DNA from: Patescibacteria group bacterium | GTDB lineage: Bacteria; Patescibacteriota; Patescibacteriia; UBA11705; DATKZF01 | Assembly: GCA_049319825.1 (NCBI GenBank) | Contig: JBMORT010000002.1 | Coordinates: 15,550-79,549, forward strand | Direction: 5' to 3' | Length of the DNA: 64,000 nt | Shown: positions 3,914-46,174 of the stretch, one piece after another | Position numbering within the stretch: position 1 is the stretch's first letter | Layout of the letters: each line of letters starts with the position of its first letter | The notes under the pieces: model-generated | What the model saw: the letters and a program-made list of their open reading frames with translations, nothing else | Told to the model about the DNA's origin: nothing | Databases searched by the model: none | Translations under genes and position numbers: made by a program

Positions 3914-5344
3914 TTGGAAAGTAGAAAGTGGAAATTTAATATGGGAGATGAAAAACTTTTTGATCTGTTTCAGCGAGAACAAGAATATTTAAAAGAGCAG
4001 GAACAAAAAAATCCTGAACTTTTTATTCGAACCGAGTCAGTCGAGTCAGCCGAGACACTGGCAAAAGTCGGCATATCTTTCCCCTTCTCCCAGCTGCCGA
4101 TTGGTTATTTAAAGTATCATCCTTTCGATTTTATAGTCGAGGAAATTCAAACCGACGGCCGAATCAGCTCAGTGGGCATTGCCGAAGAAAACAGTTCAGG
4201 ATTGTCCGCTGAAGATCCGACCATCTATGCTGATTTGGTAAAAGTCGGCATTTCGACCATAGATGCCGTGGATGAGCTGGCCAAAATGCTCAGCATCGAT
4301 TCGAAAAATATCGGCACGGCCGGGATAAAAGACCAAAACGCGCTGACCAGCCAGCGCATCAGCATTCGCTCAGCCAGGCTGGACAAGGTCATTAATCTAA
4401 AGCCGAAAAACTTTTTGCTCCAAAATTTAGCCACCGGCAAAGGGGCGATACAGCTGGGCAGCCTGACCGGCAATCGATTCACCATATTTGTCCGCACGGA
4501 AAAACAAATACCTCAAAGCGCTGTCGAAGACCAGCTCAGCCGGGCTCGGAGTGCTGGATTTTGGAACTTTTACTGGCTGCAGCGGTTCGGCAACCGCCTG
4601 CTGTCTCATTACTGGGGCTTACTTTTATTCCGGGGGGATTATCAAGGAGCGGTCAGATCTTATTTTTGCCAGCCGGGCAATCAGGATAATCCTTTTTACC
4701 GGCAGCTAAGGCAGCAGGCAGCCGAGCGATTCGGCGACTGGCCGGCGCTGCGCGAGATGTTTGAAAAGCTTCCTTACAGTCTTCGCTATGAACTGACCAT
4801 GCTCGATCACCTGATCAAGCGGCCGGATGATTACACCGGCGCTCTAAACACCATCTCAGACCAGATCCGGCTGTGGGTTTACGCCTATGCCAGCTATCTA
4901 TTCAACGGCTTACTCTCACATTATGCCAATTCCGGCGAAAAATGTCCGAAAAATTTACCACTGGTTTTAAGCCTGGATCGAGCCGATCAGGCACCCTATC
5001 AGGCGTTTCTGGAAGCGGACGGCGTGCCCGCTAATTTTGGAAAAAACTTAAGGCCTTTTCCTTATATTCGGCTCTCTCACCGGGTCGTCAATTCCCAGTT
5101 TGAGCCGGAAATCCTGGGCGTCAAATCATTGCCCGAGGGCGTATTAATTGCTTTTAATCTGGACAAAGGTTCGTATGCCACCACTTTTCTCGCCCATCTT
5201 TTTACACTGACCGGCGGCCTGCCGGTGCCGCATTGGCTGAAACCTCAAAAATATGATTTTAAAAAACTGCTTGGACCGGGCAGCATTAAAAATACCTTTG
5301 AAATGTTTAAAGACTATATTGTGGAAAAAGAAAAGGCAGTATAA
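3914..5344 (+). CDS. truD: tRNA pseudouridine synthase TruD/Pus7-family-like
   Basis: GTAGIKDQNALTSQRISI matches the GxKD catalytic motif. FWNFYWLQRFGN matches the NYFGxQRFG motif of TruD. A start at 3944 (MGDEKLF) is also possible. Confidence 0.55.
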   Translation: MESRKWKFNMGDEKLFDLFQREQEYLKEQEQKNPELFIRTESVESAETLAKVGISFPFSQLPIGYLKYHPFDFIVEEIQTDGRISSVGIAEENSSGLSAEDPTIYADLVKVGISTIDAVDELAKMLSIDSKNIGTAGIKDQNALTSQRISIRSARLDKVINLKPKNFLLQNLATGKGAIQLGSLTGNRFTIFVRTEKQIPQSAVEDQLSRARSAGFWNFYWLQRFGNRLLSHYWGLLLFRGDYQGAVRSYFCQPGNQDNPFYRQLRQQAAERFGDWPALREMFEKLPYSLRYELTMLDHLIKRPDDYTGALNTISDQIRLWVYAYASYLFNGLLSHYANSGEKCPKNLPLVLSLDRADQAPYQAFLEADGVPANFGKNLRPFPYIRLSHRVVNSQFEPEILGVKSLPEGVLIAFNLDKGSYATTFLAHLFTLTGGLPVPHWLKPQKYDFKKLLGPGSIKNTFEMFKDYIVEKEKAV

Positions 5345-10123: not shown

Positions 10124-12913
10124 TTATTCCAATTTTATTGTCGGACCGCTGATATTGGCTTCGACGCCGGCAAAATCGATGATCTTCGCGCTTAGTGCAT
10201 AACTGCCCGCACCCGGAAAAACACCCCAGGAGACAAACACAGTCGCCGAATCGGGATTGCCCACCGAGCCAATCTCATTATTATTGTAGTAAAATTTCAC
10301 TTCTTTGGTTTGTCCCAAATCGGTCAGCCGGCCCTTGACCACGATCGGAAAATTATCAGATTTGTAAGTCGATCCGCCAAGAGGAAACATCCAGGTCATC
10401 GACGGCGCCGGCCGCTCGACCACGAGGTTGATGTCGATGGCCGCTTCGCCGGAATTTTCCACATCGTCATAGGCGATCGCCTTTAAATTGTGATAGCCGT
10501 TGGCCACTCTGGAATCGATGGCATAACTTAGGCCGTAAGGATGATTAAATGAAGTCGAAATATAATTTCCGTCCAAATAGTATTCAACCTTGGTGATGCG
10601 CCGGAACGCGGAAACGGAAATTTGCGCCGTTAAATTCGTGTTCGTGACTGTCTGGCCGGCGGTCGGCGAAATAAATTTGACGACCGGCCTCGATTCCGGC
10701 TGATGCACGTCGTCCGGTTCGGTTGGCGGTTTAGCGATAACCAGTTCTTTGCCTTCTTCCTCGGCCTTTTTCACCTTGGCTTCAAGCCACGACTGAACCC
10801 CCGCTTCCCAAGCGCCGTAAGCCGGATCCAAATTGTCCTTGGTTGGCGCCGGACCGAGCGGGTCATTCGGATTGATGTAATGAAGCTCGCAATGGTAATC
10901 CATGTATGTCCGCTCCTCGATCGCCTGCGGCGGCGTATATTCGGTCGCCAACTTGCCGCTGTATTTATCGACTTTCACCATGACTTCGCCGGTGTAGCTG
11001 CCGTTTAAGATCGGTTTATCTGTTTTGGGTTTGACGTAAGAATTAAATCCTTCGGCCGGCAAATCAACGGTCGCCTCGGACATATATTCATGCCAAATCG
11101 GCGCGGCGCCAATGCTGCCGCCGGCGCGGTTCATCTCTGAATTATCGTTGTTTCCCACCCAGACGCCGGCTACCAAATTGGGAGTGTAGCCCATGGTCCA
11201 GCCGTCGCGGTAATCGTTGGTGGTGCCGGTTTTCGCCGCTACCGGTCGCGAGCCGAGGTTAAGATTATTCTGTGCGCCAAAAACGTACGCGCGGGCTTCA
11301 TTGTCCGATAAAATGCTATTGATCATTCGGGCGATGTTTTTATCCAGGACGTCTCGGGGGGTCGGCTGTTCAAATTCCTCGATCAGCTGGCCATGGCCAT
11401 CTTCGATTCTCAGAATCGGAGTGGACGGCACATACTGGCCTTCGTTGGCGAATACCGCGTAGGCAGTGGCATGATCGAGTAATTTCACTTCACCGCCGCC
11501 CAAAACCAGCGCCAAACCGAACCGACCACGATCAGCGAATGATTGATAGCCGAATTTTTCAAACAAATCAATGGCTCGATCTTTGCCGACAATATAAAGC
11601 GCCTTTACCGCCGGAATATTGAGCGAGCCGGCCAATGCCTTTCGGATGCTGACCGGGCCGCGGGCGGAATTGTCATAATTATGAGGAGTGTACGGCTGAG
11701 TGCCCTCGGTTTTAAAAGTCGTCACCGCGTCAAATAAAATGCTCTCGGGCGAGAAGCCTTTTTCAAACAGCGCGGCGTAAACCATCGGTTTGAGGGATGA
11801 CCCCGGCTGACGCAGCCGAGTCGCGACATTGACTTGACCATCGATTTCCGTGTCAAAAAAATCCTTTGATCCGACCATGGCTAAAATCTGCCCGGTTTTC
11901 GGATCGAGCGAGACCAGCGCGGCGTTGGAATAACCAAATTCCTTGCCGCGATTGTCAACGGCATTGCGAACCGCATCTTCGGCGATTTTTTGCTTATCCA
12001 AATCCAAGGTGGTGATCACCTTCAGCCCCTCTTCCAATTTTTTTTCTCCGTATTTTTCCGACAATACTTCTTTGACGTACATGACAAAATGAGGAGCGGT
12101 AATGCTTTCGGTTTTTTGCACAAATACTATTTCCTGCTGTTTGGCTTGTTCAGCCTCTTCTTTTGAAATGTATCCCTGCTCGGCCATTTTATCCAGCACC
12201 ATGTGCTGACGACCGTATAATTCGTCCAAATGACTGCCGTAAGGCGAATAAAAACTGGGGCGCTGAGGCAAAGAGGCCAGCAAAGCGCTCTCGGCCAAAT
12301 TCAGCTCGCGGACGTCTTTGCCCAAAAATGTTTGCGACGCCGAAGCAATGCCATAGGACACCGAGCCGTATGGTATTTCATTTAAATACATTTGCAGTAT
12401 TTGATCTTTGGTGAACTTTTTTTCCAGCTGATAAGCCAAAATCAATTCTTTGACTTTTCTGGTGAATGTTCGTTCCGAAGTTAAGATAGCGTTTTTTACA
12501 AACTGCTGAGTGATGGTCGAACCGCCGCCGCGAGAACCGCCAAACAGCACCGCTCGAAGCACACCGGTGTAACTGAATCCGTGATGCTGATAAAATTCTT
12601 TATCTTCGATGGCGATTGTCGCCCATTTAACGGTATTGGGAATCTCTTCGAGCGGCACCAGCGTTCTTTTTTCTTCACCGTGAACTTCATACAGCACTGT
12701 TTCGCCGGTGCGATCGTAAATCTGAGTGCTCTGGGCGATGTCGCGATCCATAATTTTATTGGGATCGGGCAGATCGCGAGAAAACCAAGCGAACGCCGCG
12801 ACGACAAATATCACGCCGATGACAAAAGCGAACAGGCCGAAAATAAACAATCGTCTGATCCAAAGCTTCCAGCGAAATTTTCCTGATTTGGCTTTCCTTG
12901 AATTTGATTTCAT
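10124..12913 (-). CDS. class A penicillin-binding protein (PBP1A-type transglycosylase/transpeptidase) with C-terminal Ig-like extension
   Basis: Glycosyltransferase motifs EDKEFYQHHGF and RGGSTITQQ. Transpeptidase motifs SSLKP (SxxK), SLN and KTGTT. N-terminal basic tail plus TM. The likely start is ATG 12913 (MKSNSRKAKS); the ORF runs to 12997. Confidence 0.85.
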   Translation of the reverse strand: MKSNSRKAKSGKFRWKLWIRRLFIFGLFAFVIGVIFVVAAFAWFSRDLPDPNKIMDRDIAQSTQIYDRTGETVLYEVHGEEKRTLVPLEEIPNTVKWATIAIEDKEFYQHHGFSYTGVLRAVLFGGSRGGGSTITQQFVKNAILTSERTFTRKVKELILAYQLEKKFTKDQILQMYLNEIPYGSVSYGIASASQTFLGKDVRELNLAESALLASLPQRPSFYSPYGSHLDELYGRQHMVLDKMAEQGYISKEEAEQAKQQEIVFVQKTESITAPHFVMYVKEVLSEKYGEKKLEEGLKVITTLDLDKQKIAEDAVRNAVDNRGKEFGYSNAALVSLDPKTGQILAMVGSKDFFDTEIDGQVNVATRLRQPGSSLKPMVYAALFEKGFSPESILFDAVTTFKTEGTQPYTPHNYDNSARGPVSIRKALAGSLNIPAVKALYIVGKDRAIDLFEKFGYQSFADRGRFGLALVLGGGEVKLLDHATAYAVFANEGQYVPSTPILRIEDGHGQLIEEFEQPTPRDVLDKNIARMINSILSDNEARAYVFGAQNNLNLGSRPVAAKTGTTNDYRDGWTMGYTPNLVAGVWVGNNDNSEMNRAGGSIGAAPIWHEYMSEATVDLPAEGFNSYVKPKTDKPILNGSYTGEVMVKVDKYSGKLATEYTPPQAIEERTYMDYHCELHYINPNDPLGPAPTKDNLDPAYGAWEAGVQSWLEAKVKKAEEEGKELVIAKPPTEPDDVHQPESRPVVKFISPTAGQTVTNTNLTAQISVSAFRRITKVEYYLDGNYISTSFNHPYGLSYAIDSRVANGYHNLKAIAYDDVENSGEAAIDINLVVERPAPSMTWMFPLGGSTYKSDNFPIVVKGRLTDLGQTKEVKFYYNNNEIGSVGNPDSATVFVSWGVFPGAGSYALSAKIIDFAGVEANISGPTIKLE

Positions 12914-13130
12914 TGTGGTTTGAAAATGCGGCAAGGGCATAAATAAAAGAAAAAAAGAAAAACGATATTTAGGCGGCAGGCAACGGGCAGCAGCCATAGC
13001 TTGTCGCGTTAGTCTTTGCCTGTGGCCTTTACCTTTTTTTACTTTTTAATTTCCTGTTTATCATCCGCTATATTTTAACGAAAATAGCGAAAAATGCAAG
13101 ATAAAAAATTAAATTCAATCGATTTATCAG

Positions 13131-14162
13131 TTATTTTCGGCGTTTTCTGACCGGCTTGGTTTCCGGGTAAAGCTGGTCGATGATCGCTCCGGCCACATCT
13201 CGCGGTCGACCGCTGTACGGCTGGTGATGAATGCTGATCATCGGGGAATCATTGACTTCGATAATGATATAATTTTTTTTATTGGGTTTGGCCGTCACAT
13301 CGGTGGTTAGGTAATCTATACCGCCAAAAGCTAGCCCGGGGATGGAACGAATCACTCTGACCGCCAGCTTTTTCACTTCCGGATGGATTTTATCGGTGAC
13401 GTCGTAGCTGTCCCCGCCGGTGGAGATATTGGAATTGGCGCGCAAAAAAACCTGCTCCCCGTTTTTGGGAATATAACTGGTGTCTTTATGCTGTTTTTGC
13501 AAATAAAGCTTAACGGCCTTATCGACTTTTATTTTTACCAGGCTTTTTTCATGGCTCAACCCGCGCCGGGGGTCTTGATTTTTTTCCTGAATGAGCTGTT
13601 TAATCGTTTTAACGCCATCACCGACCACGTTGGCCGGCACGCGCAGGGTCGCGGCCACGAATTTTTCTTTGAGCGCCAAAAGCCGGTATTCCTGTCCGAA
13701 AAACATCTTTTCCACCACGATTTTATGGAATCGGGTATCTTTGAATTCCTTGAGAACGTCTTTCACTTTTTTATCGGAATTCAAATCCACAAAGACCAAT
13801 TTGCCCTGAATGCCGCTCAGCGGCTTGATAACTACCGGATATTTTATCTGGTGGCAAAATTTCAAAACATCGCCGGTCTGATCATAGTTGAATATTTCAC
13901 CGGCAGCGACATTGATGCCGGCGCGCTTAAAAAAATACTTGGTCAACTGTTTGTTCTTCTGTATCCAATAAGCGATGCAATCGGTTTTGGAAGTCCGCTG
14001 TCCGACAATTATTTCCTGATGACCGCGATAATTCAATTCCAGCAAACTGGCTTTGGCCATCGGCCCGGTGGTAAAAATTTTTCTGACTTTAATGCCGCGA
14101 TCAAGCGCTTCTTTCGCCAGTAAATAAGTGCTCGATTGAAAAAATTGTTCCGGTTTGATCAT
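13131..14162 (-). CDS. ATP-grasp domain ligase (CphA/RimK-like)
   Basis: ATP-grasp signature including ANSNISTGG (cyanophycin synthetase/RimK-type) and VVIKPLSGIQG. Confidence 0.65.
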   Translation of the reverse strand: MIKPEQFFQSSTYLLAKEALDRGIKVRKIFTTGPMAKASLLELNYRGHQEIIVGQRTSKTDCIAYWIQKNKQLTKYFFKRAGINVAAGEIFNYDQTGDVLKFCHQIKYPVVIKPLSGIQGKLVFVDLNSDKKVKDVLKEFKDTRFHKIVVEKMFFGQEYRLLALKEKFVAATLRVPANVVGDGVKTIKQLIQEKNQDPRRGLSHEKSLVKIKVDKAVKLYLQKQHKDTSYIPKNGEQVFLRANSNISTGGDSYDVTDKIHPEVKKLAVRVIRSIPGLAFGGIDYLTTDVTAKPNKKNYIIIEVNDSPMISIHHQPYSGRPRDVAGAIIDQLYPETKPVRKRRK

Positions 14163-14163
14163 A

Positions 14164-15027
14164 TTATTTTGATTTTAACTTTTCTAAAAATTTAATGACG
14201 CGGGCGGCAATGTCAATGCCGGTGGCCCGCGTGAGCGCTCTGAATCCGGGACAGCGATTTACCTCCAGTATGTAAGGATGGCCATCTTGATCATACATTA
14301 AATCAACTCCGGCAATATCGGCATTTGACGCTTTCACCGCCTTAAGGGCCAGCGCTTTTTGCTTTGAGGTCAACACGTGCTTAGCGCTCCTGCCGGAAAG
14401 CGGCACTTGATGATGGCTCAGGTAGTCCAGAGAATACCGCTTGATTGAAGCCACGATTCGACCGTCAATGACAAAAATTCGATAATAATGATTTGATTTG
14501 ATGATCTTTTGGATAAAGAAATCATTGATATCGCGCTCAGTCAACAATTTAAGCAGCTGTGTTTTATTATCTTTTTTAAAAATATTTCGGCCATGCATCC
14601 CGCGCAGATCTTTGACCAAAACCGGAAAAGGCAGTTTAACGCCGCTTTTTTTAAATTCGCTCAAACTGGAGAAAAGCCAACTGTCGGCGCAGGGCAACCC
14701 GTGAAAGCTCAGCGCCGCGTAAGAGAACATTTTATCAACAACATACACTTTGCGGTAGAGCTCCCGATCGACGACTTCTTTTTTGCATCGTTTTAAGTAT
14801 TTGGCGATGGTGCGAGTTTTTTCCATGTGCGGATAAACGCCTCGGATCAGGGTGACGTCGAATTCGCGGATATCTTTTTTTCCCAACCTGACCGTAAATT
14901 TCTTATCCTTCAATACAAAATAAAAATTGATTATTGACGCCAGAGTGACCTGATGACGGCGAGCTTTGGCCGCCGCCACCAACCGGCGATTGGCGTAGGT
15001 GTTCGGTCCGATGATCAATATTTTCAT
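14164..15027 (-). CDS. RimK-family alpha-L-glutamate ligase-like ATP-grasp protein
   Basis: VLVKDLRGMHGRNIF, YRIFVIDGRIVASIKR and DIAGVDLMYDQDGHPYILEVNRCPGF are RimK-like ATP-grasp motifs. There is a 1-nt gap to the upstream gene. Confidence 0.7.
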   Translation of the reverse strand: MKILIIGPNTYANRRLVAAAKARRHQVTLASIINFYFVLKDKKFTVRLGKKDIREFDVTLIRGVYPHMEKTRTIAKYLKRCKKEVVDRELYRKVYVVDKMFSYAALSFHGLPCADSWLFSSLSEFKKSGVKLPFPVLVKDLRGMHGRNIFKKDNKTQLLKLLTERDINDFFIQKIIKSNHYYRIFVIDGRIVASIKRYSLDYLSHHQVPLSGRSAKHVLTSKQKALALKAVKASNADIAGVDLMYDQDGHPYILEVNRCPGFRALTRATGIDIAARVIKFLEKLKSK

Positions 15028-15057
15028 AATTGGGAAAGCAAATTTTAATTTATCCGC

Positions 15058-16452
15058 TCAACGCGACGGGTCAACTAAAAACTTCTTCAAATCTCTTCGT
15101 CCAATAATAATCGGATATTCCAATTCCTTGCGGCTAATGATCGACGCCCGGGAACTTATATCGACGCCGGACAACGTTATTTTAACCGGCACTTCAATGC
15201 GGTATGACGCGCCATGGCTGCTGTATGTTTTGGCGACGGCCACGATATCCGGATGTTTCTCCAATTCCTTCCATATTTTTTTTCGGCTTAATTCCTCGAC
15301 TTGCTCTCGAGTCAATTTTTCGGAAATATTGAATGTCTGAAAATAATCGATGGCGCTCTTAAATCCCAGCTCAATGGCCAATTCTTCATCGATTGAACTG
15401 ATGCCGGCGCCCGTGTCGATCTTGGCCTCGACTTCGATCGTTTTATCCTGGCCCTTTATTTTAACCGCTTCGATAATGCCGATCATCTGCTTGCCGGAAA
15501 TTTCCTCGATTTCCTGCTCCACTTCGCCGCCAAATAATTCTTTGCCGACTTTTATACCCCTGGCCATAGTTTTTATTTTCAAGCCTTGCAGTCGCTGCAG
15601 CCTCTCTTTGAGCGGCGATAGATTGGCGATCTGAATCGACAGTCCGGGATGGGCGTTTATTTCCAAAATTTGCGGCCCTTTTTCGCGATCAATGGCGACA
15701 TCGACGCCGATGTATCCCAAACCGCTGGCTTCTTGGGCGATAACCGCGTATTCCAAAATTTTATTCCAATAAGGAATTTTCAAGCCGCTCAGCGCAAACC
15801 GGGTTTCCGGCAAATATTCGATCAAACTGTTTTTTTGAATGGCGTGAGTGGTGATACCCGAAGCGATATCGATGCCCACTCCGATGCCGCCCATGTGCAG
15901 ATTGGCTTTGCCGCCGGAAACTTTGGTCGTCAGCCGCAACATGGCCATCACCGGCACTTTGTTGTAAACGATTACCCGAATATCGGGGATGCCTTTATAG
16001 GCGTAAAGTTTAAATGCCGGATGAATTTTAAGCCGCTCCTCAAAGAATGCCGAATCCGGGGCATGGCTCATGGAAAAATCTCCGTCCAAAATATTCAGCA
16101 CATGCTCTTTAATTTCCTCAAGGGTGATTTCTTTGTCGCGCGACATTATCCAGTTGCCGTTTCTTTTCCGGCCAAAAGTTACGATAATTCCTTCACCGCC
16201 CAAGCCGCGATTGGGTTTGAGCACGAAACTCTCCGGTAAAATATCCCAGTCGAAATTATAAAACTCCTGCCGGTCGCGAATAACGGCGATCAAATCGGCG
16301 GTCGGCAATCCGGCTTCGAACATCGCTTCTTTTGAGCGCAGCTTGTCATTGGCCAGTTTTATGGCCGAGCTGGGATTCGACGGTTTGACGAATTTCAAAT
16401 TTCGGGCGTTCATGCCCAAAATCCCTTTACTTTTTTTTAGAATCTGCAGCAT
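15058..16452 (-). CDS. ATP-grasp (alpha-L-glutamate ligase-related) protein fused to C-terminal retropepsin-like (DUF785) aspartyl protease domain
   Basis: N-terminal ATP-grasp region (GMNARNL...VLKPNRGLGGEGI). C-terminal domain has the KIDTGAGISSID (D-T-G-A) aspartic protease signature typical of the RimK-associated zinc-protease/retropepsin domain. Confidence 0.65.
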   Translation of the reverse strand: MLQILKKSKGILGMNARNLKFVKPSNPSSAIKLANDKLRSKEAMFEAGLPTADLIAVIRDRQEFYNFDWDILPESFVLKPNRGLGGEGIIVTFGRKRNGNWIMSRDKEITLEEIKEHVLNILDGDFSMSHAPDSAFFEERLKIHPAFKLYAYKGIPDIRVIVYNKVPVMAMLRLTTKVSGGKANLHMGGIGVGIDIASGITTHAIQKNSLIEYLPETRFALSGLKIPYWNKILEYAVIAQEASGLGYIGVDVAIDREKGPQILEINAHPGLSIQIANLSPLKERLQRLQGLKIKTMARGIKVGKELFGGEVEQEIEEISGKQMIGIIEAVKIKGQDKTIEVEAKIDTGAGISSIDEELAIELGFKSAIDYFQTFNISEKLTREQVEELSRKKIWKELEKHPDIVAVAKTYSSHGASYRIEVPVKITLSGVDISSRASIISRKELEYPIIIGRRDLKKFLVDPSR

Positions 16453-18010
16453 GCTTGATCACCTTTCTGAATCGAAAATATTCCGTCAGGCGGAGTCCGG
16501 CCCATTTTCCGAGGAATATATTGATCACAATACATAGTAAAATTATTTCCGGATACCCCAAAAGCAACGATTTCATTGTTTGCAAACTGGCCAGCCAATA
16601 ACAAAAACTGGATAAAATCAATGTCTCGATCGTCAATAAAATAGCGGGGCGCATCCCTCTCTCAATCTGAGCGGAAACGAACTTTTCAGATAACACGATC
16701 ATGATTAGAATGGGAAAAACGCTTAAGGTCATTAACGAAGTGTCTTTCATTAGGGCGCCGATGGCAAACAAAGTCATTGTCGCCAAACTGACGATGATTA
16801 AAATTAAGGCCATTCTCGGTAAATACAGCAAACCCAGTTTTCTGGCCAGTACCCGGCCGACACTGGCGATAATCAAAATCAGCGCGAAAATCAGCAGTCC
16901 ATAGACAATTCCGGTTCCCAAAAAAGACAAAGCGATAATTGTGGGCGTGTAAATGCCGAATGCTTTGATTCCGATAAACTGGCGGGTAAATGAAAGTATC
17001 GTGGCGATGATCGGCAGGATTAACAGAAGATAAATGCTGTTTAGCGGCACGCCGCGATTAACCATGTAGCTGATGCCGTAGGCCAAAAAATTCCACGGTT
17101 TCAGCTGACCGATTTCCCGCTGCGTATGAAGGCCGATCAATTGATATTGAACTCCTCCTTCTCCATAATTATTGAGGAGTGAATCCAAATTAATGAAGCT
17201 GACCGCCGAATTCAACCCTTCCTTTTCCGCCAGCAAAATAAATTGCGGTTCGATTAAATTGAACAAGCTCTGCGCCAGCCTGGCCGCGCCGGAGAATTTG
17301 TCATTGACGACGATGATGACTTTGTTGGAAAAACCGTAATCGGCCAGCGCGGTGCGACCGCCGGTAATGGTGGTGGCGCTGAGCGTCTGCGCGGCATTGA
17401 TCAAGGCGTTCAGCCCAATATTGCCTTCGGTCAGCACCACAATGTTTTTTGCCTGCTTGATATTTTCCTTGGATTCGATTATTTTCTGGCTGAGTTCATT
17501 TTCAACCACTATGTCCAAATCCTTTTTTTCATTTTTTATGTTAATGATTAAAATTCCTTGGCTTGAAGCTTGCCGGGCAAGCTCCTCAAGCCGCTGATTG
17601 TCCACCGAATAATCGGATATTAAAATGATCAAATCCTTATCGACGGACACGATGAATTCATCGGTTGATTGCTGGCCGCTCTGCCTATCCTGAACTGTCA
17701 AACTGGCTCGATAAATGCCGGGATTGCGGTAGGTATGAATAACCTCTTGGCCTGTTGCGCGGTTGCCGTCGCCGAAGTTCCAGATATATTCGACCGGGGC
17801 TCCTTTGGGAGCGCTCGAGCCGGCGGCGCTGAAAAAAATCTGGCGTTCGACCACGACGTTGCGGTCACCGCCGGAAACGGCGGTTAGCGGCACCTGCGGA
17901 ATTTCTTTTTGATCGGGTAGATTAGCCGCAATATTTTGCTGCGCGTTGGCGAAATTAAAAAATCCCAAACAAGCAATTGCGATTAGGATTAAAGCCGTGA
18001 CTTTTTTCAT
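16427..18010 (-). CDS. secreted PKD-domain protein fused to C-terminal 7-TM module (ATP-grasp-associated 7TM family)
   Basis: Signal peptide, then a PKD-like region (YIWNFGDGNRATGQEVIHTYRNPGIYRASLTVQD), then about 7 hydrophobic helices at the C-terminus. It overlaps the ATP-grasp gene by 26 nt. Confidence 0.65.
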   Translation of the reverse strand: MKKVTALILIAIACLGFFNFANAQQNIAANLPDQKEIPQVPLTAVSGGDRNVVVERQIFFSAAGSSAPKGAPVEYIWNFGDGNRATGQEVIHTYRNPGIYRASLTVQDRQSGQQSTDEFIVSVDKDLIILISDYSVDNQRLEELARQASSQGILIINIKNEKKDLDIVVENELSQKIIESKENIKQAKNIVVLTEGNIGLNALINAAQTLSATTITGGRTALADYGFSNKVIIVVNDKFSGAARLAQSLFNLIEPQFILLAEKEGLNSAVSFINLDSLLNNYGEGGVQYQLIGLHTQREIGQLKPWNFLAYGISYMVNRGVPLNSIYLLLILPIIATILSFTRQFIGIKAFGIYTPTIIALSFLGTGIVYGLLIFALILIIASVGRVLARKLGLLYLPRMALILIIVSLATMTLFAIGALMKDTSLMTLSVFPILIMIVLSEKFVSAQIERGMRPAILLTIETLILSSFCYWLASLQTMKSLLLGYPEIILLCIVINIFLGKWAGLRLTEYFRFRKVIKHAADSKKK

Positions 18011-18021
18011 AACGTTTATTT

Positions 18022-18537
18022 TTATTTTTGTTTATTTAAACACTCGCTGAGCTTGATCGAGCGCGAGGCGCAAATGGCTGCCGCCAGCGCGTCCGCGGCG
18101 TGATCGGGCTGGGGTATCTCTTTTAAATTAAGCAATATCCGCACCATTTTCTGCACCTGATCTTTGCCGGCGCGGCCATAGGCGGCCAGCGCCTGCTTGA
18201 TTTCCAGCGGAGTAAAAGTCAAAACGGGCAAACCGGCCAAACTGCCGGTTAGAGCGATAACGCCGCAAGCTTGACCGACTTTCAATGCGCTTTTGGCGTT
18301 TTTGGCGAAAAATAAATCTTCCACCGCCAAAAAATCGGGCTGATGTTCGGCAATGATGCTTCCAAGTCTTTGATGAATTTCCAAAAGACGACGGGCCAGC
18401 TCCGTTTTTTGGCTGGTTTCGATGCAGCCGTAATCGATCAGCTGTTCTTTTCCGGCCGAACAGCAGATCAAGCCGAATCCGGTTTTCGCCAGGCCGGGAT
18501 CTACCCCGAGAATAATAATATCTTTAGAGTTTCGCAT
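18022..18537 (-). CDS. ruvC: crossover junction endodeoxyribonuclease RuvC
   Basis: IILGVDPGLAKTGFGLI N-terminus and conserved acidic residues. Start taken at ATG 18537 (MRNSKDIIILGVDPG). Confidence 0.85.
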   Translation of the reverse strand: MRNSKDIIILGVDPGLAKTGFGLICCSAGKEQLIDYGCIETSQKTELARRLLEIHQRLGSIIAEHQPDFLAVEDLFFAKNAKSALKVGQACGVIALTGSLAGLPVLTFTPLEIKQALAAYGRAGKDQVQKMVRILLNLKEIPQPDHAADALAAAICASRSIKLSECLNKQK

Positions 18538-19249
18538 TTGAATAAACGCCATTGACGTCATCTTGCTCCTCCAGCGCCTCGGTCATTGAGTTTAATTTTT
18601 GAATGTCGGTTTCCGATAGCTGGACATTTTCTTTGGCGATCCACTCCAAGCCGGCGTAATCGATTTGATACCCGGCGTCTCTGATCTTTTGTTCCACGGG
18701 TTTGAGGCTTTCACGAGTGGTATAAACCGTCAGTCCGCCGTCTTCTTCTTTAACGTCCTCGGCTCCGAAATCAATCATCTCCAGCTGAACCGCGTCCAAA
18801 TTTTTTCCAACGTATGATTCCGACAGAATTCTGATCACCCCTTTTTGCTCAAACATCCATTTAACGGCGTTGGACCCGGCCAAACTGCCGCCAAGCTTTG
18901 ACAGCAACACTTTTATTTCCGAGGCGGTGCGATTTTTATTATCGGTGGCGCCTTCAATCAATAGCCCGATGCCGGCCGGGCCGAAAGCTTCATACAGCAC
19001 TTCCTCGATCACCGCGCCTTCGAGTTCGCCGGCACCTCTGGCGACCGCCCGCTCAATATTATCCTTGGGCATATTGGCGTCGCGCGCCGCGTCGATCGCC
19101 AACCGTAATTTAAAATTCATGTCAGGATCTTTTCCGTCTCTGGCGGCAACGATGATGTTTCTGGCGAGCTTGGTGAAAACGGAAGCCCTTTTTTTATCCG
19201 CGACTTCCTTGGCCCGATGAGTGGTTGCCCACTTTGAATGTCCCGACAT
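18524..19249 (-). CDS. yebC: YebC/PmpR family DNA-binding transcriptional regulator
   Basis: MSGHSKWATTHRAKEVADKKRASVFTKLARNI is the canonical YebC N-terminus. Start at ATG 19249. It overlaps ruvC by 14 nt (operon). Confidence 0.85.
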   Translation of the reverse strand: MSGHSKWATTHRAKEVADKKRASVFTKLARNIIVAARDGKDPDMNFKLRLAIDAARDANMPKDNIERAVARGAGELEGAVIEEVLYEAFGPAGIGLLIEGATDNKNRTASEIKVLLSKLGGSLAGSNAVKWMFEQKGVIRILSESYVGKNLDAVQLEMIDFGAEDVKEEDGGLTVYTTRESLKPVEQKIRDAGYQIDYAGLEWIAKENVQLSETDIQKLNSMTEALEEQDDVNGVYSNAKL

Positions 19250-21421: not shown

Positions 21422-21811
21422 TTATCCTTGAACGGCGGTCAGCAGTTCGCCAACCACGTAATTGGTAATGGCATACGCCAGCAAAATGATTATCAAGCCG
21501 ATAATGCCGTTGACAATCCAGCTTTTGGCCTTTTTCGTTTGATCCTCATCGCCACCGGCGGTCATCCACAACCAGCCTCCGTAAATGATTACGATTAAAA
21601 GCACGACTCCCAAAAATCCCAGCACGATTTTGATGATGGTCCCAATGGTTGCCGGCAATGATTTGGTGGTGGCGAATTCCCCCAATCCAGTGCCCACTTC
21701 CCCCAATTGCCCTTGAATCTGCGACTGCGCCAGCGCGGGTAGTCCCATGCTTAGAGACAAAATGGTGATCATGATCACCGGCAAAAAAGTTCTGATTAAT
21801 TTTTTGCTCAT
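21422..21811 (-). CDS. VirB2/TrbC-like pilin family small membrane protein (paralog 1 of 6)
   Basis: Signal/TM, then the conserved core IIKIVLGFLGVVLLIVIIYGGWLWMTAGGDEDQTKKAKSWIVNGIIGLIIILLAYAITNYV shared with five downstream paralogs. Start at ATG 21811; the ORF runs to 21871. Confidence 0.6.
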   Translation of the reverse strand: MSKKLIRTFLPVIMITILSLSMGLPALAQSQIQGQLGEVGTGLGEFATTKSLPATIGTIIKIVLGFLGVVLLIVIIYGGWLWMTAGGDEDQTKKAKSWIVNGIIGLIIILLAYAITNYVVGELLTAVQG

Positions 21812-21876
21812 AATTTCCAAGATGTTAATTATTGACAAGTATATTATAAACTTTTTTAAAACCTGATGCAAACGAT

Positions 21877-22251
21877 TTATCCCGCCGCCGTCGAAATTTG
21901 CTGGACCACGTAACTGGTTATGGCGTAGGCCATCAGCGTGATGGCCAATCCGATCATACCGTTAATTATTCTCGCTTTGGCTTTGCGCACCTGATCCTCG
22001 TCGCCGCCGGCCGTCATCCATAAAAATCCGGCATAAACCAAAATTATCAACAGTACCACGCCCAATGCGCTCAGAAAAAAATAAATGACCGTTCCGATTA
22101 TCACCGTCGGCTCCTGGGATTTCAGCCCGGCCCGTCCGGCGGTTTCATCCAGCCCGGTGCTGACGGCTTGACCGATCAGCGGCGCCGTCACCGCTGAAAT
22201 GATGACCGCCAACAGGGAAATAATCAATGTTTTTTTTAAAAATTTGCTCAT
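21877..22251 (-). CDS. VirB2/TrbC-like pilin family small membrane protein (paralog 2)
   Basis: Core GFLWMTAGGDEDQVRKAKARIINGMIGLAITLMAYAITSYV. Confidence 0.6.
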   Translation of the reverse strand: MSKFLKKTLIISLLAVIISAVTAPLIGQAVSTGLDETAGRAGLKSQEPTVIIGTVIYFFLSALGVVLLIILVYAGFLWMTAGGDEDQVRKAKARIINGMIGLAITLMAYAITSYVVQQISTAAG

Positions 22252-22256
22252 ATTTA

Positions 22257-22598
22257 TTACTGAAGAGGAATTAACACCCGGGTCATCACATAGGATAATA
22301 TCGCATATGACGACAAAATGATTGCCAGCCCGATAATGCCGTTAAATATATAATTTCGACCGCGCCGAACCTGTTCTTCTTCGCCGCCGGCCGTCATCCA
22401 CAAAAAACCTCCGTAAATGACCACGACCAGTAAAGCCACGCCGACAAAACCCAAAATATATTCCAAAATATTGCCGATCAGTACCGGTAAATTTTCTTGC
22501 CGGCCGACACCGGCTTCTTTGGCCGCGGTTTCCAACCCCTGTTCAACCTGAACCGCCGCCAATCGGGCCGAACCTAAAATATGTTTATATATGTCCAT
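22257..22598 (-). CDS. VirB2/TrbC-like pilin family small membrane protein (paralog 3)
   Basis: Core GGFLWMTAGGEEEQVRRGRNYIFNGIIGLAIILSSYAILSYV. Confidence 0.6.
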   Translation of the reverse strand: MDIYKHILGSARLAAVQVEQGLETAAKEAGVGRQENLPVLIGNILEYILGFVGVALLVVVIYGGFLWMTAGGEEEQVRRGRNYIFNGIIGLAIILSSYAILSYVMTRVLIPLQ

Positions 22599-22686
22599 AG
22601 TCGCTGAATGAAATCTCCCCGCGAAAAAATTTCACGGAGAAATTTCAAGGGCAGAGTACCCAGCTGGCATCACTCTGCCCAAAAAA

Positions 22687-23079
22687 TTAATCGTTACCGC
22701 CGCCTTCAACGGTAGCAGAAATCAGCGACTCGATGACAAATGTGGTAATGGCGTAAGCGGCCAAGATTATGGCCAATCCAATAATGCCGGAAATAAGCCA
22801 TTTTTTAGCTTCACCGACTTTTTCCTCGCTACCACCAGCGGTCATCCACTTGAATCCGCCGATCAGCATGATGATAATCGCCACCACGCCTAAAAATCCC
22901 AGAACGGTTTTGATGATCGAACCGATCACCGCTCTAAGATCGCGGGTTGAATATCCGACTTCAGACTGAATCGGCTCCAGCCCGACATCGATTTGAGCGG
23001 CGGCGATTAAAGGCATAACCGCCAAAAACAACGCGCCCAAAACCATCAACACCGGAATAAACTTTTGAATTTTGTTCAT
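22687..23079 (-). CDS. VirB2/TrbC-like pilin family small membrane protein (paralog 4)
   Basis: Core GGFKWMTAGGSEEKVGEAKKWLISGIIGLAIILAAYAITTFV. Confidence 0.6.
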   Translation of the reverse strand: MNKIQKFIPVLMVLGALFLAVMPLIAAAQIDVGLEPIQSEVGYSTRDLRAVIGSIIKTVLGFLGVVAIIIMLIGGFKWMTAGGSEEKVGEAKKWLISGIIGLAIILAAYAITTFVIESLISATVEGGGND

Positions 23080-29302: not shown

Positions 29303-32300
29303 ATGATAAAAATAAAAATCTTCATATCAATCCTGGCAATATTTCTATTGTCGGCCTTAGGTTTTTCCAACAGCATTCCCGTCGCCTCGGCAATATCCGG
29401 CACCAATGTCCAGCCAGGCAATCTGGTGCAGTCGAATGTCACCTCGGTAACAGTGACTTTCACCAGCGCCGTCACCTTACCGGCTGATGGAAAAGTGAAA
29501 GTCGTTTTCCCTGCCGGCTTTAATGTCAGCGGCGCCACTACCGGCCGTTGCACCAGTATGAATGGCGGTTTCTCCACCTCTATATCCGCTCAAACCGTTA
29601 CGATTACGCGTGACAACACCGGCTCTGCCAGACTGGCCGGGGCCCAATCTTGTACTATTGATAATATCGCCAACCCTTCACTGGCCGGCTCCACCGGAAC
29701 GTACGCCATCGGTCTTTATCAAAATAACGATACTTTGCTCGAGCAAGACTTGGCCGTATCTGCGGATACGATAATCGCTCCGGGCGCTTTGGCTGCCACT
29801 AATGTCGAACCTGAAAATCTGATTGAACTGACTCGATCACGATACGCCGTTTCTTTCACTACCGCGAACCCTGTCACCGCCGACGGCCAGATTAGCGTGA
29901 CTTTCCCTGCGGGATTCAATGTTTCAGCGGCGAACGGAGGTACTTGCGCTTCAATGAACGGCGGTTTTTCCACTTCGGTCAACGGCCAGACCGTCACTTT
30001 GATCCGAGACGGCTTGGGCACGGTTCAAACACCGGCGGCAGAAACATGCGTCATCGATGGCATTGCCGCCCCGGCCGCCGGATTGTCCGGCACATACACT
30101 ATCAGAACGAAAGATCGATCCGGCAACAGTACCGATAGCGATCCGGCGGTGTCGAGCGACATGTATATTGCCGCGCCGGCCTTGGTCGTCACCAATGTCC
30201 AGCCGGCCTCCCTTGTCGCCGGCGCCACGTCGACAGTCACGATTTCCTTCACGACAGTAGTTTCCACTCCGATCAGCGCCAAGGTGCGAGTGACATTTCC
30301 GGCAGGTTTCGACCTCTCTGCCGCGGGTACGGCGAGCTGCTCTTCCATGCCCGGCACAGAATCTTCGGCCATTGCCGGACAAGTGTTGACGATTACCAGG
30401 GCGGCCACCGCCACCGAACCAGCCGCCGCGGAAACTTGCATCATACCCACCGTTAAAAACCCTCCTGTTTCCGGATCAACCGGGACATATTCCATTGAAA
30501 TAATAGACGATCAAGCTTCGCCGGCTGTCGTTTCCTCGGATACGGCCGTTTCCGCCGACACGATCACTCCCGGCACACTGACCGCCACCAATGTCCAGCC
30601 TGAAAATCTGGTGGTCGGCATCACCAGCGAACAAACTGTCACTTTTAACACGACCAATCCGATTCCGGCCAATGGGAAAATTTCAGTGGATTTTCCGGCA
30701 GGATTTAATGTCAGCGCCGCCAATGCTGGCACGTGCGCGGTCATGGACGGAACTTTTTCTACTTCTGTTGCCGGTCAAACCGTGACCATCAGCAGAAACG
30801 GCTCACTCGCGGTATCTTCGACCAGCGCCATTACCTGCATCATCAAAGACATTACGGCTCCGGCAGTTCCCGGAGCGGGCGGCGTCTATGCGATCAGAAC
30901 CGAAGACTCTCTGGGAAACACCATTGATTCGGCCGCGCCGACCAGCGATACTTTTATTGCCAGTCCGTCATTGGGTGGCACAAACGTACAACCAACGAGT
31001 CTCGTTGCTTCCATCACCAGTGACAATGCGATTTCATTCAACACCTCTCAATATATTCCGGCAGAGGGCAAAATAAAAATAACCTTTGGGGCCGGGTTTA
31101 ATGTTTCCGGCGCTTATGGCGGTGAATGCAGCGGCTTCGATGGCACGCTCATCACTTCTGTCGCGGGGCAAACAGTTATTCTTTCTCGCGGAGGGACTTC
31201 AACTACCGTCGTCTCCGGTGCCAAAACATGTCGCCTTTATGGAATAAAAAATCAGTCGATAACTGGATCCACCGGCACTTATTCGATTTTTATCACTGAT
31301 AAAACGGATGCGACCGTTGCCTCAAATTCTTCAGTCGCTGCCGATACGATCATCAATTCCGGAACTTTGACCGCTGCCGATGTCCAGCCGGGATCTCTTG
31401 TCGCTGGGCATGTGGGAACTAATTTGATAACTTTTTCCGCGGTTGGTGGCATTCCGACCGGCGGGAAAATAAAAATCACTTTCCCGTCCGGCTTCGATGT
31501 CAGCGCCGCCGCTGACAGCTCCTGCGTCGGGCTGACGGGAACCGTCTCGACCAGCGTGTCGGGGCAAACCGTAACGCTCAGCCGAGACGCGTCGAGTGCC
31601 GGACAAGCCAGCGGCACCGTGTCTTGCTCTATCGACAATATTAAAAATCCCACCGTATCCGGATCCACCGGAACATATCTGATCACAACCGCCGATCCGA
31701 CTGACACGACTATTTCCACCGCCTCACCGACCGCGGACACCATCACCGCTGGTGCGCTTAGCTCGGCGGATGTCCAGCCGGATACGACGCTGATATCAGC
31801 CGCCAATACCGTTTCGGTCAATTTTAACGGCACCAATCCGTTGCCCGGAGACGGTAAAATCGTCATCGTCTTTCCCGCCGGGTATGATCTGACGGGAGTC
31901 GGCACCGCCGATATGTCTTGCACCGGCTTAGCCGGCACTCTCAGCGCATCGACAGCCGGCAATACCCTCACCGCGGCACGATCCGGCGGTTCGGCGACAA
32001 GCGGCGGCGATGCTTTTTCCTGTGCCATAGCCAATATCATCAATCCGACAACGGCCGGATCTGCCGGCACATATACGCTGCGTACCACCAATTCTGTCGA
32101 TGCGATAATCGATGAAAATAGTTCTGTTGCCGCCGATACTTTCGGCGCGGCCGGAACGCTGACCAATACCAATGTCGAGCCGGAAAGCACAATCATTAAA
32201 CGAACGGGAACCGCGACAATTTCCTTTACCTCTGCTTTGGGTTTGCCGCGAGACGGTAAAATAAGAATTACTTTTCCGGCCGGATTCCTGATCACCGGCG

Positions 32301-46126: not shown

Positions 46127-46165
46127 GCGCCTCGGTTTTTTACCTTGGCGCGGTTATTTTTTTAC
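46127..46165 (+). terminator. rho-independent terminator downstream of dnaN
   Basis: aaaaaCGCGCCtcggttttttaccttGGCGCGgttattttttt. Confidence 0.55.
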
Positions 46166-46174
46166 TGGCGTAGG

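Follow-up and report, generated by a model that had tools for sequence, protein, structure and literature searches.

A patescibacterial (CPR) version of the bacterial Rlo/Rim ligase and protease system

Which system is encoded by four closely packed genes of a patescibacterial (CPR) genome, and what might it make? The genes lie on the minus strand, as do all features given below, at positions 13131-18010 of the window, the 64-kb stretch of DNA analysed here. An ORF check recovered all four where they had been predicted. G1 (16427..18010; 527 aa; ORF, Pfam and NCBIfam) is an RloB-like membrane protein in which a signal peptide is followed by PKD, alpha/beta and 7TM_transglut domains; G2 (15058..16452; 464 aa; ORF and profiles) joins an ATP-grasp ligase of the RloC type to a retropepsin of the RimB/RloA type. 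The two accessory genes encode a RimK/LysX-family ATP-grasp ligase (G3, 14164..15027; 287 aa; profiles) and a protein homologous to the G (ATP-grasp) domain of cyanophycin synthetase but standing alone (G4, 13131..14162; 343 aa). The tight packing originally claimed also agrees with the ORFs: G1 and G2 overlap by 26 nt, and gaps of 30 nt and 1 nt separate G2 from G3 and G3 from G4.

Iyer, Aravind and co-workers (Mol Biosyst 2009) reportedly predicted that ATP-grasp ligases, inactive-transglutaminase-7TM proteins and DUF785 peptidases cooperate in peptide synthesis or modification. The original prediction assigned the module to this ATP-grasp, retropepsin and 7TM_transglut neighbourhood, correctly, as both the retropepsin and the 7TM assignments pass profile searches. 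It also called the neighbourhood functionally unsolved, which is outdated: the system was named RloABC in Pseudomonas aeruginosa, with genetics, RloA structures, poly-Glu cleavage and a relation to RimK/RimB (Lormand et al., mBio 2025; PMC12239564), and RimB-RimK hybrids are known (PMC11957791). Deletion of rloB or rloC suppresses the Pseudomonas rloA1-3 triple mutant (PMC12239564), so that the protease removes a product of the ligase and the 7TM protein. The rlo mutants have cell-shape, beta-lactam and hypo-osmotic defects, and 96% of RloB matches fall in Proteobacteria (PMC12239564). In the Rim system, RimB trims the poly-alpha-Glu made by RimK and stimulates its synthesis; a natural hybrid of RimB and RimK is also active (Little et al., JBC 2025, PMC11957791). 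The kind of system is already known and the G1-G4 module is a variant, not a new kind: the four genes are a CPR version, undescribed before, of the recently named bacterial Rlo/Rim system.

The ATP-grasp domain of G2 (residues 17-290; 15583..16404) matches PF14397 (ATPgrasp_ST; E 3e-67) and scores 288 bits against TIGR02291, slightly below the cutoff of 314, compared to 51 bits against the RimK family model TIGR00768. Its best Foldseek matches in the PDB are RimK, LysX and CphA1 (E 1e-9), and the motif E264-x-N266 is invariant among the aligned homologues. An acidic linker, LFGGEVEQEIEEISGK (residues 306-321; 15490..15537), is invariant in alignment A1, in which the longer N-terminus of G2 is conserved as well; although residues 309-327 have a pLDDT below 50, the linker motif and its 41-residue distance to the DTG are conserved across CPR classes. 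The predicted structure as a whole is of moderate confidence (pLDDT 74.9). More than 6,400 homologues of G2 were found, the best 120 of which are all of ∼450–503 aa.

The C-terminal half is a retropepsin-like domain with a helical insert at ∼365–397 (residues 323-464; 15061..15486), matched by PF05618 (Zn_protease/RimB-like; 29.6 bits, cutoff 27) and by the NCBIfam models RloA3, RloA2 and RloA1 (E 1e-8, 7e-5 and 1e-4); the A1 profile matches the RloA crystal structures 9g58 (E 0.002) and 9g59 (E 0.02). The catalytic motif DTGA (residues 346-349; 15406..15417; translation checked) is invariant in 19 homologues, and the DTG is retained in nearly all of 78 CPR loci, which upholds the predicted fusion of an ATP-grasp to a retropepsin-like domain with an intact DTGA. 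By homology, G2 is shown to combine an RloC-type ligase (TIGR02291) with a RimB/RloA-type retropepsin whose catalytic DTG is intact. In RloA, K46, D48, R114 and R137 contact octa-Glu, and mutation of R114 or R137 abolishes function (PMC12239564). HMMER aligned K344, D346, R418 and R441 of G2 to positions 26, 28, 94 and 117 of the 9g58 chain, exactly 20 below these four RloA residues; the homologue alignment shows R418 and R441 without exception and only K or R at position 344. By these alignments, the fused protease conserves the poly-Glu-contacting residues K46, R114 and R137 of RloA.

Because the ligase carries it at its C-terminus, the G2 protease is cytoplasmic and without a signal peptide. 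A cytoplasmic protease with the poly-Glu-binding residues of RimB/RloA would also suit a RimK/RimB-like regulation of protein tails, in which Glu/Asp tails are added to S6 or another protein and removed by the fused protease, the 7TM protein acting as anchor or regulator; that an active RimB-RimK hybrid is known (PMC11957791) fits such a scheme. We nevertheless consider it unlikely. The G2 ligase is of the RloC type, as its scores against TIGR02291 and TIGR00768 indicate, and a 7TM partner that is nearly universal and often encoded by an overlapping gene answers no evident need of a soluble ribosome modifier. As weak evidence, no candidate ORF with an acidic tail was found in the 64-kb window.

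Homology shows G3 and G4 to be two further peptide-bond-forming ATP-grasp ligases. G3 matches PF08443 (E 7e-23) and Rimk_N and has Pseudomonas RimK as its best solved match (E 4e-15); it scores 122 bits against TIGR00768 (RimK family, cutoff 143) and 64 bits against the RimK equivalog PRK10446 (cutoff 331). Its membership in the RimK family speaks for protein-tail regulation, whereas its failure against the equivalog and its absence from many loci speak against it. G4 aligns to residues 159-477 of cyanophycin synthetase (TIGR02068; E 1e-93) and, in the profile search, also matches the C-terminal domain of GshAB; its solved matches are CphA1 (7lgn, the best, E 5e-58) and GshAB (3ln7, E 2e-42), and it carries the motif ANSNISTGG. 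The two stand-alone ligases with ANxSTGG and RimK motifs had thus been recognised properly. Calling the ligase triplicated was misleading, however, since the G2, G3 and G4 ligases come from three distinct ATP-grasp subfamilies, G2 and G3 sharing 32% identity over just 80 residues. We infer the amino-acid specificity of the three ligases from family membership only.

Because G4 is the closest relative of the CphA G domain and graspetide clusters occur in CPR (PMC8939145), production of a cyanophycin-like storage polymer or of a graspetide/RiPP was also considered, and appears highly improbable. Of the CphA domains, N and M (Mur-ligase-like) are missing from G4, and no partner of the Mur type is encoded next to it; the intergenic gaps of the module, at most 30 nt, leave no room for an ORF encoding a precursor; among solved structures G3 matches RimK and LysX rather than the macrocyclases MdnC or PsnB; and both G3 and G4 are dispensable across lineages.

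G1 is identical to an NCBI protein annotated as a 7TM domain-containing protein of a Patescibacteria group bacterium (P0121). From its KK n-region, hydrophobic core and A-x-A site we infer an N-terminal signal peptide (residues 1-23; 17942..18010), with predicted cleavage at MKKVTALILIAIACLGFFNFANA/QQ. The extracytoplasmic PKD domain (residues 44-122; 17645..17881; translation checked) matches PKD_4 (PF18911, E 1e-20) and PF00801 (E 2e-12), and is followed by a middle alpha/beta (flavodoxin/Rossmann-like) domain of ∼200 residues without family assignment (∼residues 125-300; 17111..17638). Nothing resembling a transglutaminase is present in the G1 head. The 7TM_transglut domain (residues 323-527; 16430..17044) gave 97 bits against PF14402 over residues 328-517 (cutoff 25) and aligns to positions 313-507, the 7TM part, of the NCBIfam RloB model (E 2e-20), confirming the 7TM assignment made for this PKD protein. 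The further claim that PKD replaces the inactive-transglutaminase head stands in part: PKD is there and transglutaminase is not, but the alpha/beta domain had been missed, and most CPR homologues of G1 have no folded head, being ∼215–230 aa long or carrying a Pro/Thr-rich linker only. The PKD head itself was found in only 9 of 80 CPR loci.

In the predicted topology, G1 has a signal peptide, an N-terminus outside, seven helices and a C-terminus inside. Among 73 CPR homologues, the motif G501..G505-x-R507-x-x-E510-x-x-R513-F514, on the predicted cytoplasmic side, is conserved, with R507, E510, R513, F514, E442 and the basic positions 343, 390, 399 and 451 standing out; the conserved charged residues of the 7TM domain are predicted to map to the cytoplasmic side. 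No solved structural relative of the 7TM domain was found and an export role for G1 is therefore a guess; for the domain to serve in anchoring, in regulation or as an acceptor would be just as plausible. Conserved residues predicted to face the compartment in which the enzyme sits would also be expected of a 7TM receptor that detects a ligand or surface with its PKD and alpha/beta head and thereby switches on the ligase and protease inside. We regard this as quite improbable: no signalling output domain is present and, since most CPR homologues are headless, head-based sensing cannot be the core function of the family. Of the two functions first proposed, poly-Glu-like peptide tailing is still the best reading, whereas small-peptide signalling, read as sensing through the head, does not agree with the headless homologues.

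How much of the module is shared was assessed in a set of 80 CPR loci, 78 of them with an intact fusion ORF. The 7TM gene is located directly upstream of the fusion gene in 73 of these 78 loci, with a gap of at most 60 nt in 67 of the 73 and overlapping genes in 32. Further ATP-grasp genes lie directly downstream in at least 54 of the 78, but the extra ligases number from 0 to 4 per locus and change type between lineages. The predicted conservation of the four-gene order holds for close relatives (the order is identical in GCA_035528115.1), and the genes are co-conserved; across CPR, however, the conserved core consists of the 7TM gene and the fusion gene only. In some CPR lineages a MATCAP-type carboxypeptidase is fused to, or adjoins, the module, suggesting an add/remove cycle at protein C-termini, a further point for protein-tail regulation, as it is, together with the downstream ATP-grasp genes, for the peptide machine favoured below; the window itself has no MATCAP gene.

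The neighbours, given for context, are a class A penicillin-binding protein gene downstream (PBP1A, 10124..12997; Transgly and Transpeptidase domains on the orthologue of locus L081) and ruvC upstream, 11 nt from G1 (18022..18561; PF02075 on the orthologue). PBP1A is encoded on the same strand at most 6 kb downstream in 25 of 50 CPR loci with enough sequence, and in 35 of 72 loci RuvC is encoded upstream in the same orientation. Both adjacencies are missing from Shapiro-, Levy- and Dojkabacteria-type loci, and they may be inherited gene order that is functionally meaningless. Genes for GT4 and GT5 glycosyltransferases, PMT_2, FemAB, YdjC and GH18 recur downstream in relatives.

In enterococci, peptidoglycan cross-bridges are made by ATP-grasp D-Asp ligases. 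The CPR ligases might likewise attach amino acids to the stem peptides or cross-bridges of peptidoglycan, or else to a surface polymer through its carboxylated sugars, with the 7TM protein handling a lipid-linked intermediate. PBP1A, the recurrent downstream genes and the envelope-type defects of the Pseudomonas rlo mutants are in line with this proposal. Pfam names PF14397 "sugar-transfer associated", a further point in its favour; this tie of ATPgrasp_ST to sugar transfer, like the nearby recurrence of glycosyltransferases, counts against the peptide machine favoured below. We still judge wall or glycopolymer decoration improbable, as a fused endopeptidase with poly-Glu-binding residues, together with some fused carboxypeptidases, points to a peptide chain rather than a single amidation, the 7TM/fusion pair persists in loci without PBP1A, and none of the G2, G3 and G4 ligases matches a Ddl, MurT or Fem-type model at curated cutoffs.

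The explanation we favour, by a modest margin over disbelief, is that G1-G4 form a CPR Rlo/Rim-type, membrane-docked machine of non-ribosomal amino-acid ligases and a protease that synthesises and trims an acidic peptide. At the expense of ATP, the G2 ligase would extend a carboxylate end by acidic residues, most likely L-Glu, and so build up an alpha-linked acidic chain that is free or attached to an acceptor. The fused retropepsin would dimerise and cut this chain, setting its length or releasing the product, as RimB does for RimK. G1, translationally coupled to G2, would bind the enzyme or the anionic product through its Arg/Glu-rich cytoplasmic face, and may then hand or present the product to the outside; its PKD and alpha/beta head would be a dispensable, lineage-specific outer attachment. 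G3 and G4 would add more residues, diversifying the product between lineages. Physiologically, the machine probably serves the cell envelope, by analogy with the Pseudomonas mutant defects and because the position beside PBP1A is conserved.

Compared to known systems, the module resembles Pseudomonas RloABC in its operon-like cluster of 7TM_transglut (RloB), TIGR02291/ATPgrasp_ST ligase (RloC) and PF05618 retropepsin (RloA), and the G2 protease resembles RloA in the conserved catalytic Asp and poly-Glu-contacting K/R residues. In contrast to RloABC, the CPR protease is fused to the ligase C-terminus and cytoplasmic, with no signal peptide, whereas the Pseudomonas protease is secreted, so a scheme of export followed by cleavage outside cannot be transferred unchanged. 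The inactive transglutaminase head of RloB is also missing, its place being taken by PKD and alpha/beta domains in G1 and left empty in most CPR; the G1-G4 locus has two additional ligases, from other subfamilies, and the host belongs to the Patescibacteria. With RimK-RimB the module shares the pairing of a cytoplasmic ATP-grasp ligase, for Glu in RimK and probably in G2, with a retropepsin-like endopeptidase; the Rim pair, too, occurs as a natural single-polypeptide hybrid, RimBK, which is proteolytically active (PMC11957791). RimBK carries its protease N-terminal to a RimK-type ligase and G2 C-terminal to an RloC-type ligase, and this opposite domain order and different ligase type imply independent fusion; unlike the G1-G4 module, Rim works without a 7TM partner, and ribosomal protein S6 is the substrate known for it. 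G4 covers the whole ATP-grasp G domain of CphA1 (7lgn, 7wac, 7lg5; E 5e-58), which extends the peptide backbone C-terminally, but stands alone, lacking both the N and the Mur-ligase-like M domains on which the synthesis of Asp-Arg cyanophycin depends. Finally, the related CPR ligase-retropepsins that carry or adjoin MATCAP (PF08014) recall the eukaryotic tubulin tyrosine ligase/MATCAP pair, in that an ATP-grasp "writer" is matched by a C-terminal "eraser"; the analogy is merely one of logic and concerns those related loci.

The module consists of four genes on the minus strand, at exactly the coordinates originally predicted: G1 (16427-18010, 527 aa) encodes a seven-helix membrane protein, G2 (15058-16452, 464 aa) a ligase-retropepsin fusion, and G3 (14164-15027, 287 aa) and G4 (13131-14162, 343 aa) two accessory ATP-grasp ligases. 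G1 shares 26 nt with G2, and the gaps are 30 nt between G2 and G3 and 1 nt between G3 and G4. An N-terminus conserved among G2 homologues supports the long start of G2. The RuvC gene, itself overlapped by that of YebC, ends 11 nt upstream of G1. A class A PBP gene (PBP1A) lies 133 nt downstream of G4, with no recognisable terminator in between in our scan, and no promoter or terminator signal exceeded shuffled expectation. The module leaves no space for a small substrate-peptide ORF, no ORF of the window other than spurious ones ends in an acidic tail or contains at least 6 consecutive Glu/Asp, and no paralogues of the module genes were found in the rest of the 64-kb window.

Several other features of the window were recorded. 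dnaA (43148-44545, plus strand) lies within the region of lowest GC (0.36-0.40, ∼38-46 kb), with a sign reversal of the GC skew near 44 kb, and this region is likely the chromosomal replication origin. A GC-rich island (46145-47512, GC 0.56) carries on the minus strand a 441-aa ORF with a weak IS110-family transposase match (PF02371, E 6e-6), fully overlapped on the plus strand by a 455-aa ORF without a match; this island probably represents a compositionally foreign insertion sequence. A 1385-aa ORF (29303-33460, plus strand), around which GC reaches 0.56 (30-32 kb), has a C-terminal peptidoglycan-binding domain (PG_binding_1) as its sole Pfam match, which leaves the greater part of the protein unassigned. 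On the minus strand, two tRNA-Leu(UAA) genes (49571-49657 and 50388-50471) lie ∼800 nt apart with tRNA-Gly(GCC) between them, a duplication unusual in a small genome. Also on the minus strand, four small membrane-protein genes (113-149 aa) form a run at 21422-23079; the one gene tested matches T4SS_pilin (PF18895, E 9e-11), and a similar array is found near the module in a Kuenenbacteria locus (L083).

The N-terminal domain of G2 (residues 17-290) is an ATP-grasp ligase that matches ATPgrasp_ST (PF14397, E 3e-67) well over the cutoff; against TIGR02291, the alpha-L-glutamate ligase-like family of RloC, G2 scores 288.3 bits over model positions 8-291 (of 317), slightly short of the curated cutoff of 314.2. 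The C-terminal domain (residues 323-464) matches the Zn_protease/RimB-like family PF05618 (29.6 bits, cutoff 27). On the equivalog models for RloA1, RloA2 and RloA3, G2 scores 35, 22 and 22 bits, far under the cutoffs of 210-280, so this domain is a member of the RloA family and not an orthologue of RloA, the secreted retropepsin with which Pseudomonas aeruginosa cleaves stretches of 8 or more Glu (Lormand et al. 2025, PMC12239564). A single-sequence phmmer search of G2 against the PDB gave no match; a profile of 19 G2 homologues matched the RloA crystal structures 9G58 (E 0.002) and 9G59 (E 0.02). In the alignment to the RloA structure, K344, D346, R418 and R441 of G2 fall on chain positions 26, 28, 94 and 117, each exactly 20 less than RloA K46, D48, R114 and R137, which comprise the catalytic Asp and the octa-Glu-binding residues; mutation of R114 or R137 abolishes RloA function (PMC12239564). 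Among the 19 homologues, DTGA, R418 and R441 do not vary and K or R always occupies position 344, and DTG is present in nearly all the surveyed loci, the exceptions being IETG (L067) and IDQG (L054). G2 therefore combines the catalytic DTG with the basic channel residues of RloA retropepsins, and it is mainly because these poly-Glu-contact equivalents are conserved that an acidic, Glu-rich substrate is expected.

In the predicted model of G2 (pLDDT 74.9), the protease shows the expected strand pattern and a helical insert. The ligase half is nearest to RimK, LysX and CphA1 in a Foldseek search of the PDB, whose match list was taken up by ATP-grasp proteins and thus gave no structural confirmation of the retropepsin domain; this domain is predicted from profiles, motif conservation and secondary structure. 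The protease is the C-terminal part of an ATP-dependent ligase protein and has no signal peptide or separate secretion of the RloA type. The two domains are joined by a linker, LFGGEVEQEIEEISGK (residues 306-321; 15490-15537, minus strand), which is predicted to be disordered yet is among the most conserved stretches in classes of the Patescibacteria (CPR), with a fixed spacing of 41 residues to the DTG. As this linker is not contiguous poly-Glu, its cleavage is not expected under the rules established for RloA and for RimB, which cleaves only where 6 or more Glu are contiguous (Little et al. 2025, PMC11957791). Possible roles of the linker are those of pseudo-substrate, autoprocessing site or docking strand.

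G1 begins with a predicted signal peptide (A-x-A site), followed by seven hydrophobic helices with positive charges clustered on alternate loops, a pattern that would place the N-terminus outside and the C-terminus inside. Profile searches identified PKD_4 (residues 44-122, E 1e-20) and 7TM_transglut (PF14402, residues 328-517, 97.4 bits, cutoff 25), the C-terminal feature of RloB. The NCBIfam RloB model NF052267 was matched over positions 313-507 of 508 (E 2e-20), that is, over its 7TM part only. A transglutaminase head on G1 was rejected, the N-terminal periplasmic inactive transglutaminase domain of RloB being absent. Residues 120-527, modelled with 38 homologues (pLDDT 85.6), form a confident alpha/beta domain of five to six strands (∼residues 125-300) and a helical bundle, the 7TM domain having seven helices; the head therefore comprises a PKD and an alpha/beta domain without family assignment. 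The suggestion that a PKD domain replaces the transglutaminase head thus proved right as to the PKD domain and incomplete in taking it to stand alone. No solved structural relative of the 7TM bundle was found. In an alignment of the window protein with 72 homologues from related loci (73 sequences), the best-conserved 7TM positions lie just past TM7 (G501, G505, R507, E510, R513 and F514), together with E442 and the basic residues 343, 390, 399 and 451. All these residues are predicted on the cytoplasmic side, the same side as the ATP-dependent fusion enzyme, and the R-x-x-E-x-x-R-F motif points to a candidate interaction site.

G3 is a RimK/LysX-family ligase short of equivalog level (PRK10446, 64 bits against a cutoff of 331; TIGR00768, 122 against 143), and its sequence suggests kinship to RimK at the family level only. 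G4 is an ATP-grasp G domain alone, covering positions 159-477 of the 862 of the cyanophycin synthetase model (E 1e-93, 315 bits against a cutoff of 850), with CphA1 7lgn as best solved match (E 5e-58); the N-G-M three-domain architecture of cyanophycin synthetase is absent. The ligase half of G2, G3 and G4 belong to different subfamilies and are not recent duplicates, and the ligase can no longer be called triplicated. That the module makes cyanophycin or a graspetide was rejected as barely credible, since the CphA N and M domains are missing and there is no precursor ORF.

Homologues of the G2 fusion number more than 6,400; the best 120 all fall at ∼450-503 aa, and most of those with a name are from Patescibacteria. 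A survey with one genome per species found the locus in at least 593 species-level genomes of this phylum, and 80 loci from Falkow-, Moran-, Kerfeld-, Dojka-, Sacchari-, Shapiro- and Levybacteria were analysed. The retropepsin domain was detected by tblastn in 74 of 78 intact fusion ORFs and was visible by eye in the remainder unless the contig ended. In 73/78 loci the fusion is immediately preceded by the 7TM gene (gap of at most 60 nt in 67, overlap in 32), and at least 54 of the 78 carry, immediately downstream, 1-4 further ATP-grasp genes in shifting mixes of CphA-G-like, RimK-like and other types. A close relative (GCA_035528115.1, 77% identity) has the same order as the window, YebC-RuvC-PKD7TM-fusion-RimK-like-CphA-like-PBP1A-SMC, and the three functions co-located in RloABC are found together both in those 73 loci and, in identical order, in this relative; a Kuenenbacteria relative has the 7TM and fusion pair only. 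The conserved unit is therefore two genes and the four-gene form a lineage state: the proposed conservation across CPR genomes holds for the pair, while the four-gene order is confined to close relatives and the ligases vary elsewhere.

The PKD and middle-domain head is present in only 9 loci. Most 7TM proteins are headless (211-240 aa), and in the Shapiro- and Levybacteria types a signal peptide with a Pro/Thr-rich linker is all that replaces the head. The PKD-headed form is common in its own right, with at least 120 clusters whose sources include Kuenen-, Kerfeld- and Andersenbacteria. As most 7TM homologues lack a head, a sensor role for that of G1 is very unlikely. Assemblies titled 'uncultured Bdellovibrionales' or 'Gammaproteobacteria' (L005, L006, L009, L014, L044, L052 and L064, among others) contain loci whose gene order is typical of CPR and whose fusion is 40-56% identical to that of the window, and the database protein P0004 is labelled Bipolaricaulota; these labels look like mislabelled taxonomy and not occurrence beyond CPR.

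Combining this analysis with Pseudomonas genetics and RimB/RimK biochemistry, we consider the odds slightly in favour of an Rlo/Rim-like mechanism for G1-G4 as a whole. The G2 ligase would assemble an acidic alpha-peptide, which its retropepsin domain would trim or release; the translationally coupled 7TM protein would dock G2 and handle the anionic product at the membrane, and G3 and G4 would lengthen or diversify it. The homologies are direct results; substrate identity, export and envelope role are inferred. A bolder proposal, which we hold to be improbable, is that the 7TM and ligase-protease pair is a CPR-wide polymerase/exporter of an anionic Glu/Asp-rich envelope peptide polymer with a function like that of teichoic acids or of a poly-glutamate capsule, with the protease setting chain length and 0-4 interchangeable accessory ligases giving lineage-specific chemistry. 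If true, CPR loci would reveal the Rlo product in Pseudomonas and Vibrio.

Variant loci were also observed. In some CPR lineages the ligase-retropepsin is ∼800 aa long (L046 3474-5876, L049 8001-10403, L067 7992-10346) and carries a third, C-terminal domain of the MATCAP metallocarboxypeptidase family (PF08014, E 4e-43, HExxH present), the retropepsin motif of the L067 fusion being IETG, not DTG. A single protein thus unites three domains: the ATP-grasp 'writer', the endopeptidase and the carboxypeptidase 'eraser'. A separate MATCAP gene adjoins the module in L048, L051, L056, L057, L060 and L066 (on the opposite strand in the last four), and none is present in the window. In L004, a second, stand-alone retropepsin gene (4332-4805, 157 aa, KIDTGA) directly follows the fusion gene; its product has no signal peptide and is therefore also cytoplasmic. 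The cytoplasmic protease and the MATCAP neighbours would suit RimK-style tailing of cytoplasmic proteins, an alternative that we nonetheless think unlikely given the near-universal 7TM partner.

In Dojka-/Saccharibacteria-type loci (L045, L055, L056, L057, L060 and L066), the fusion is followed by a CphA-G-like, a longer CphA-G-like and a RimK-like gene; the longer protein (562-571 aa) has ∼170 extra N-terminal residues without a Pfam match. Moranbacteria loci (L007 9420-11401, L017, L025, L033, L040 and L053) have a divergent ∼320-aa ATP-grasp gene (RimK/YheCD/ATPgrasp_ST-like) and then a ∼340-aa gene, which in L007, the one locus scanned with Pfam, encodes a GT4 glycosyltransferase and in the other five matches by gene size; the L007 pairing fits the Pfam label 'sugar-transfer associated' of the ligase family. 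Such recurrent glycosyltransferases, and the presence of PBP1A downstream in 25/50 loci, would accord with decoration of peptidoglycan or a glycopolymer, but a fused endopeptidase bearing poly-Glu-binding residues fits it poorly and makes it a doubtful alternative to the Rlo/Rim-like mechanism.

The neighbourhood had been described as functionally unsolved, which is out of date because Rlo genetics and RimB/RimK biochemistry have been published, and NCBIfam names match it to Rlo (PMC12239564). In P. aeruginosa, RloB is an inactive-transglutaminase-7TM protein and RloC an ATP-grasp protein, and the defects that the rloA1-3 triple mutant shows in osmotic, biofilm, antibiotic and shape traits are suppressed when either rloB or rloC is deleted; Rlo controls osmotic tolerance, biofilm formation, antibiotic sensitivity and cell shape, and Lormand et al. 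link it to RimK/RimB (PMC12239564). RimB stimulates poly-alpha-Glu synthesis by RimK, and a natural RimB-RimK hybrid with an N-terminal protease is active (PMC11957791). The window proteins are already in public databases under generic names, and our literature searches found no published description of the CPR variant.

Although the Rlo assignment itself is unsurprising, the CPR loci represent a stripped-down natural Rlo, in which tiny genomes retain the 7TM domain and the ligase-protease fusion, mostly headless. This two-gene form suggests that the 7TM domain and the cytoplasmic enzyme make up the functional core, does not require extracellular action of the protease, and would be a minimal system well suited to identifying the product. 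The RloB family was reported as 96% proteobacterial (PMC12239564); its wide occurrence in Patescibacteria, often adjoining PBP1A, broadens this range and independently hints at a role in the envelope.

Four features set the CPR form apart: (i) an independent, reversed ligase-protease fusion, (ii) a swapped or missing head, (iii) variable extra ligases and (iv) a new phylum-level host range. G1 has the 7TM domain in common with RloB but lacks the transglutaminase head. G2 shares its retropepsin chemistry with RloA but not the secretion, and a cytoplasmic protease is a real difference from Pseudomonas Rlo. In the RimB-RimK hybrid the RimB domain is N-terminal to a RimK-type ligase, whereas in G2 the order is reversed and the ligase, with 51 bits on TIGR00768 (cutoff 143), is not RimK-type. 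The CPR variant thus resembles Rim in its enzyme logic and Rlo in its membership.
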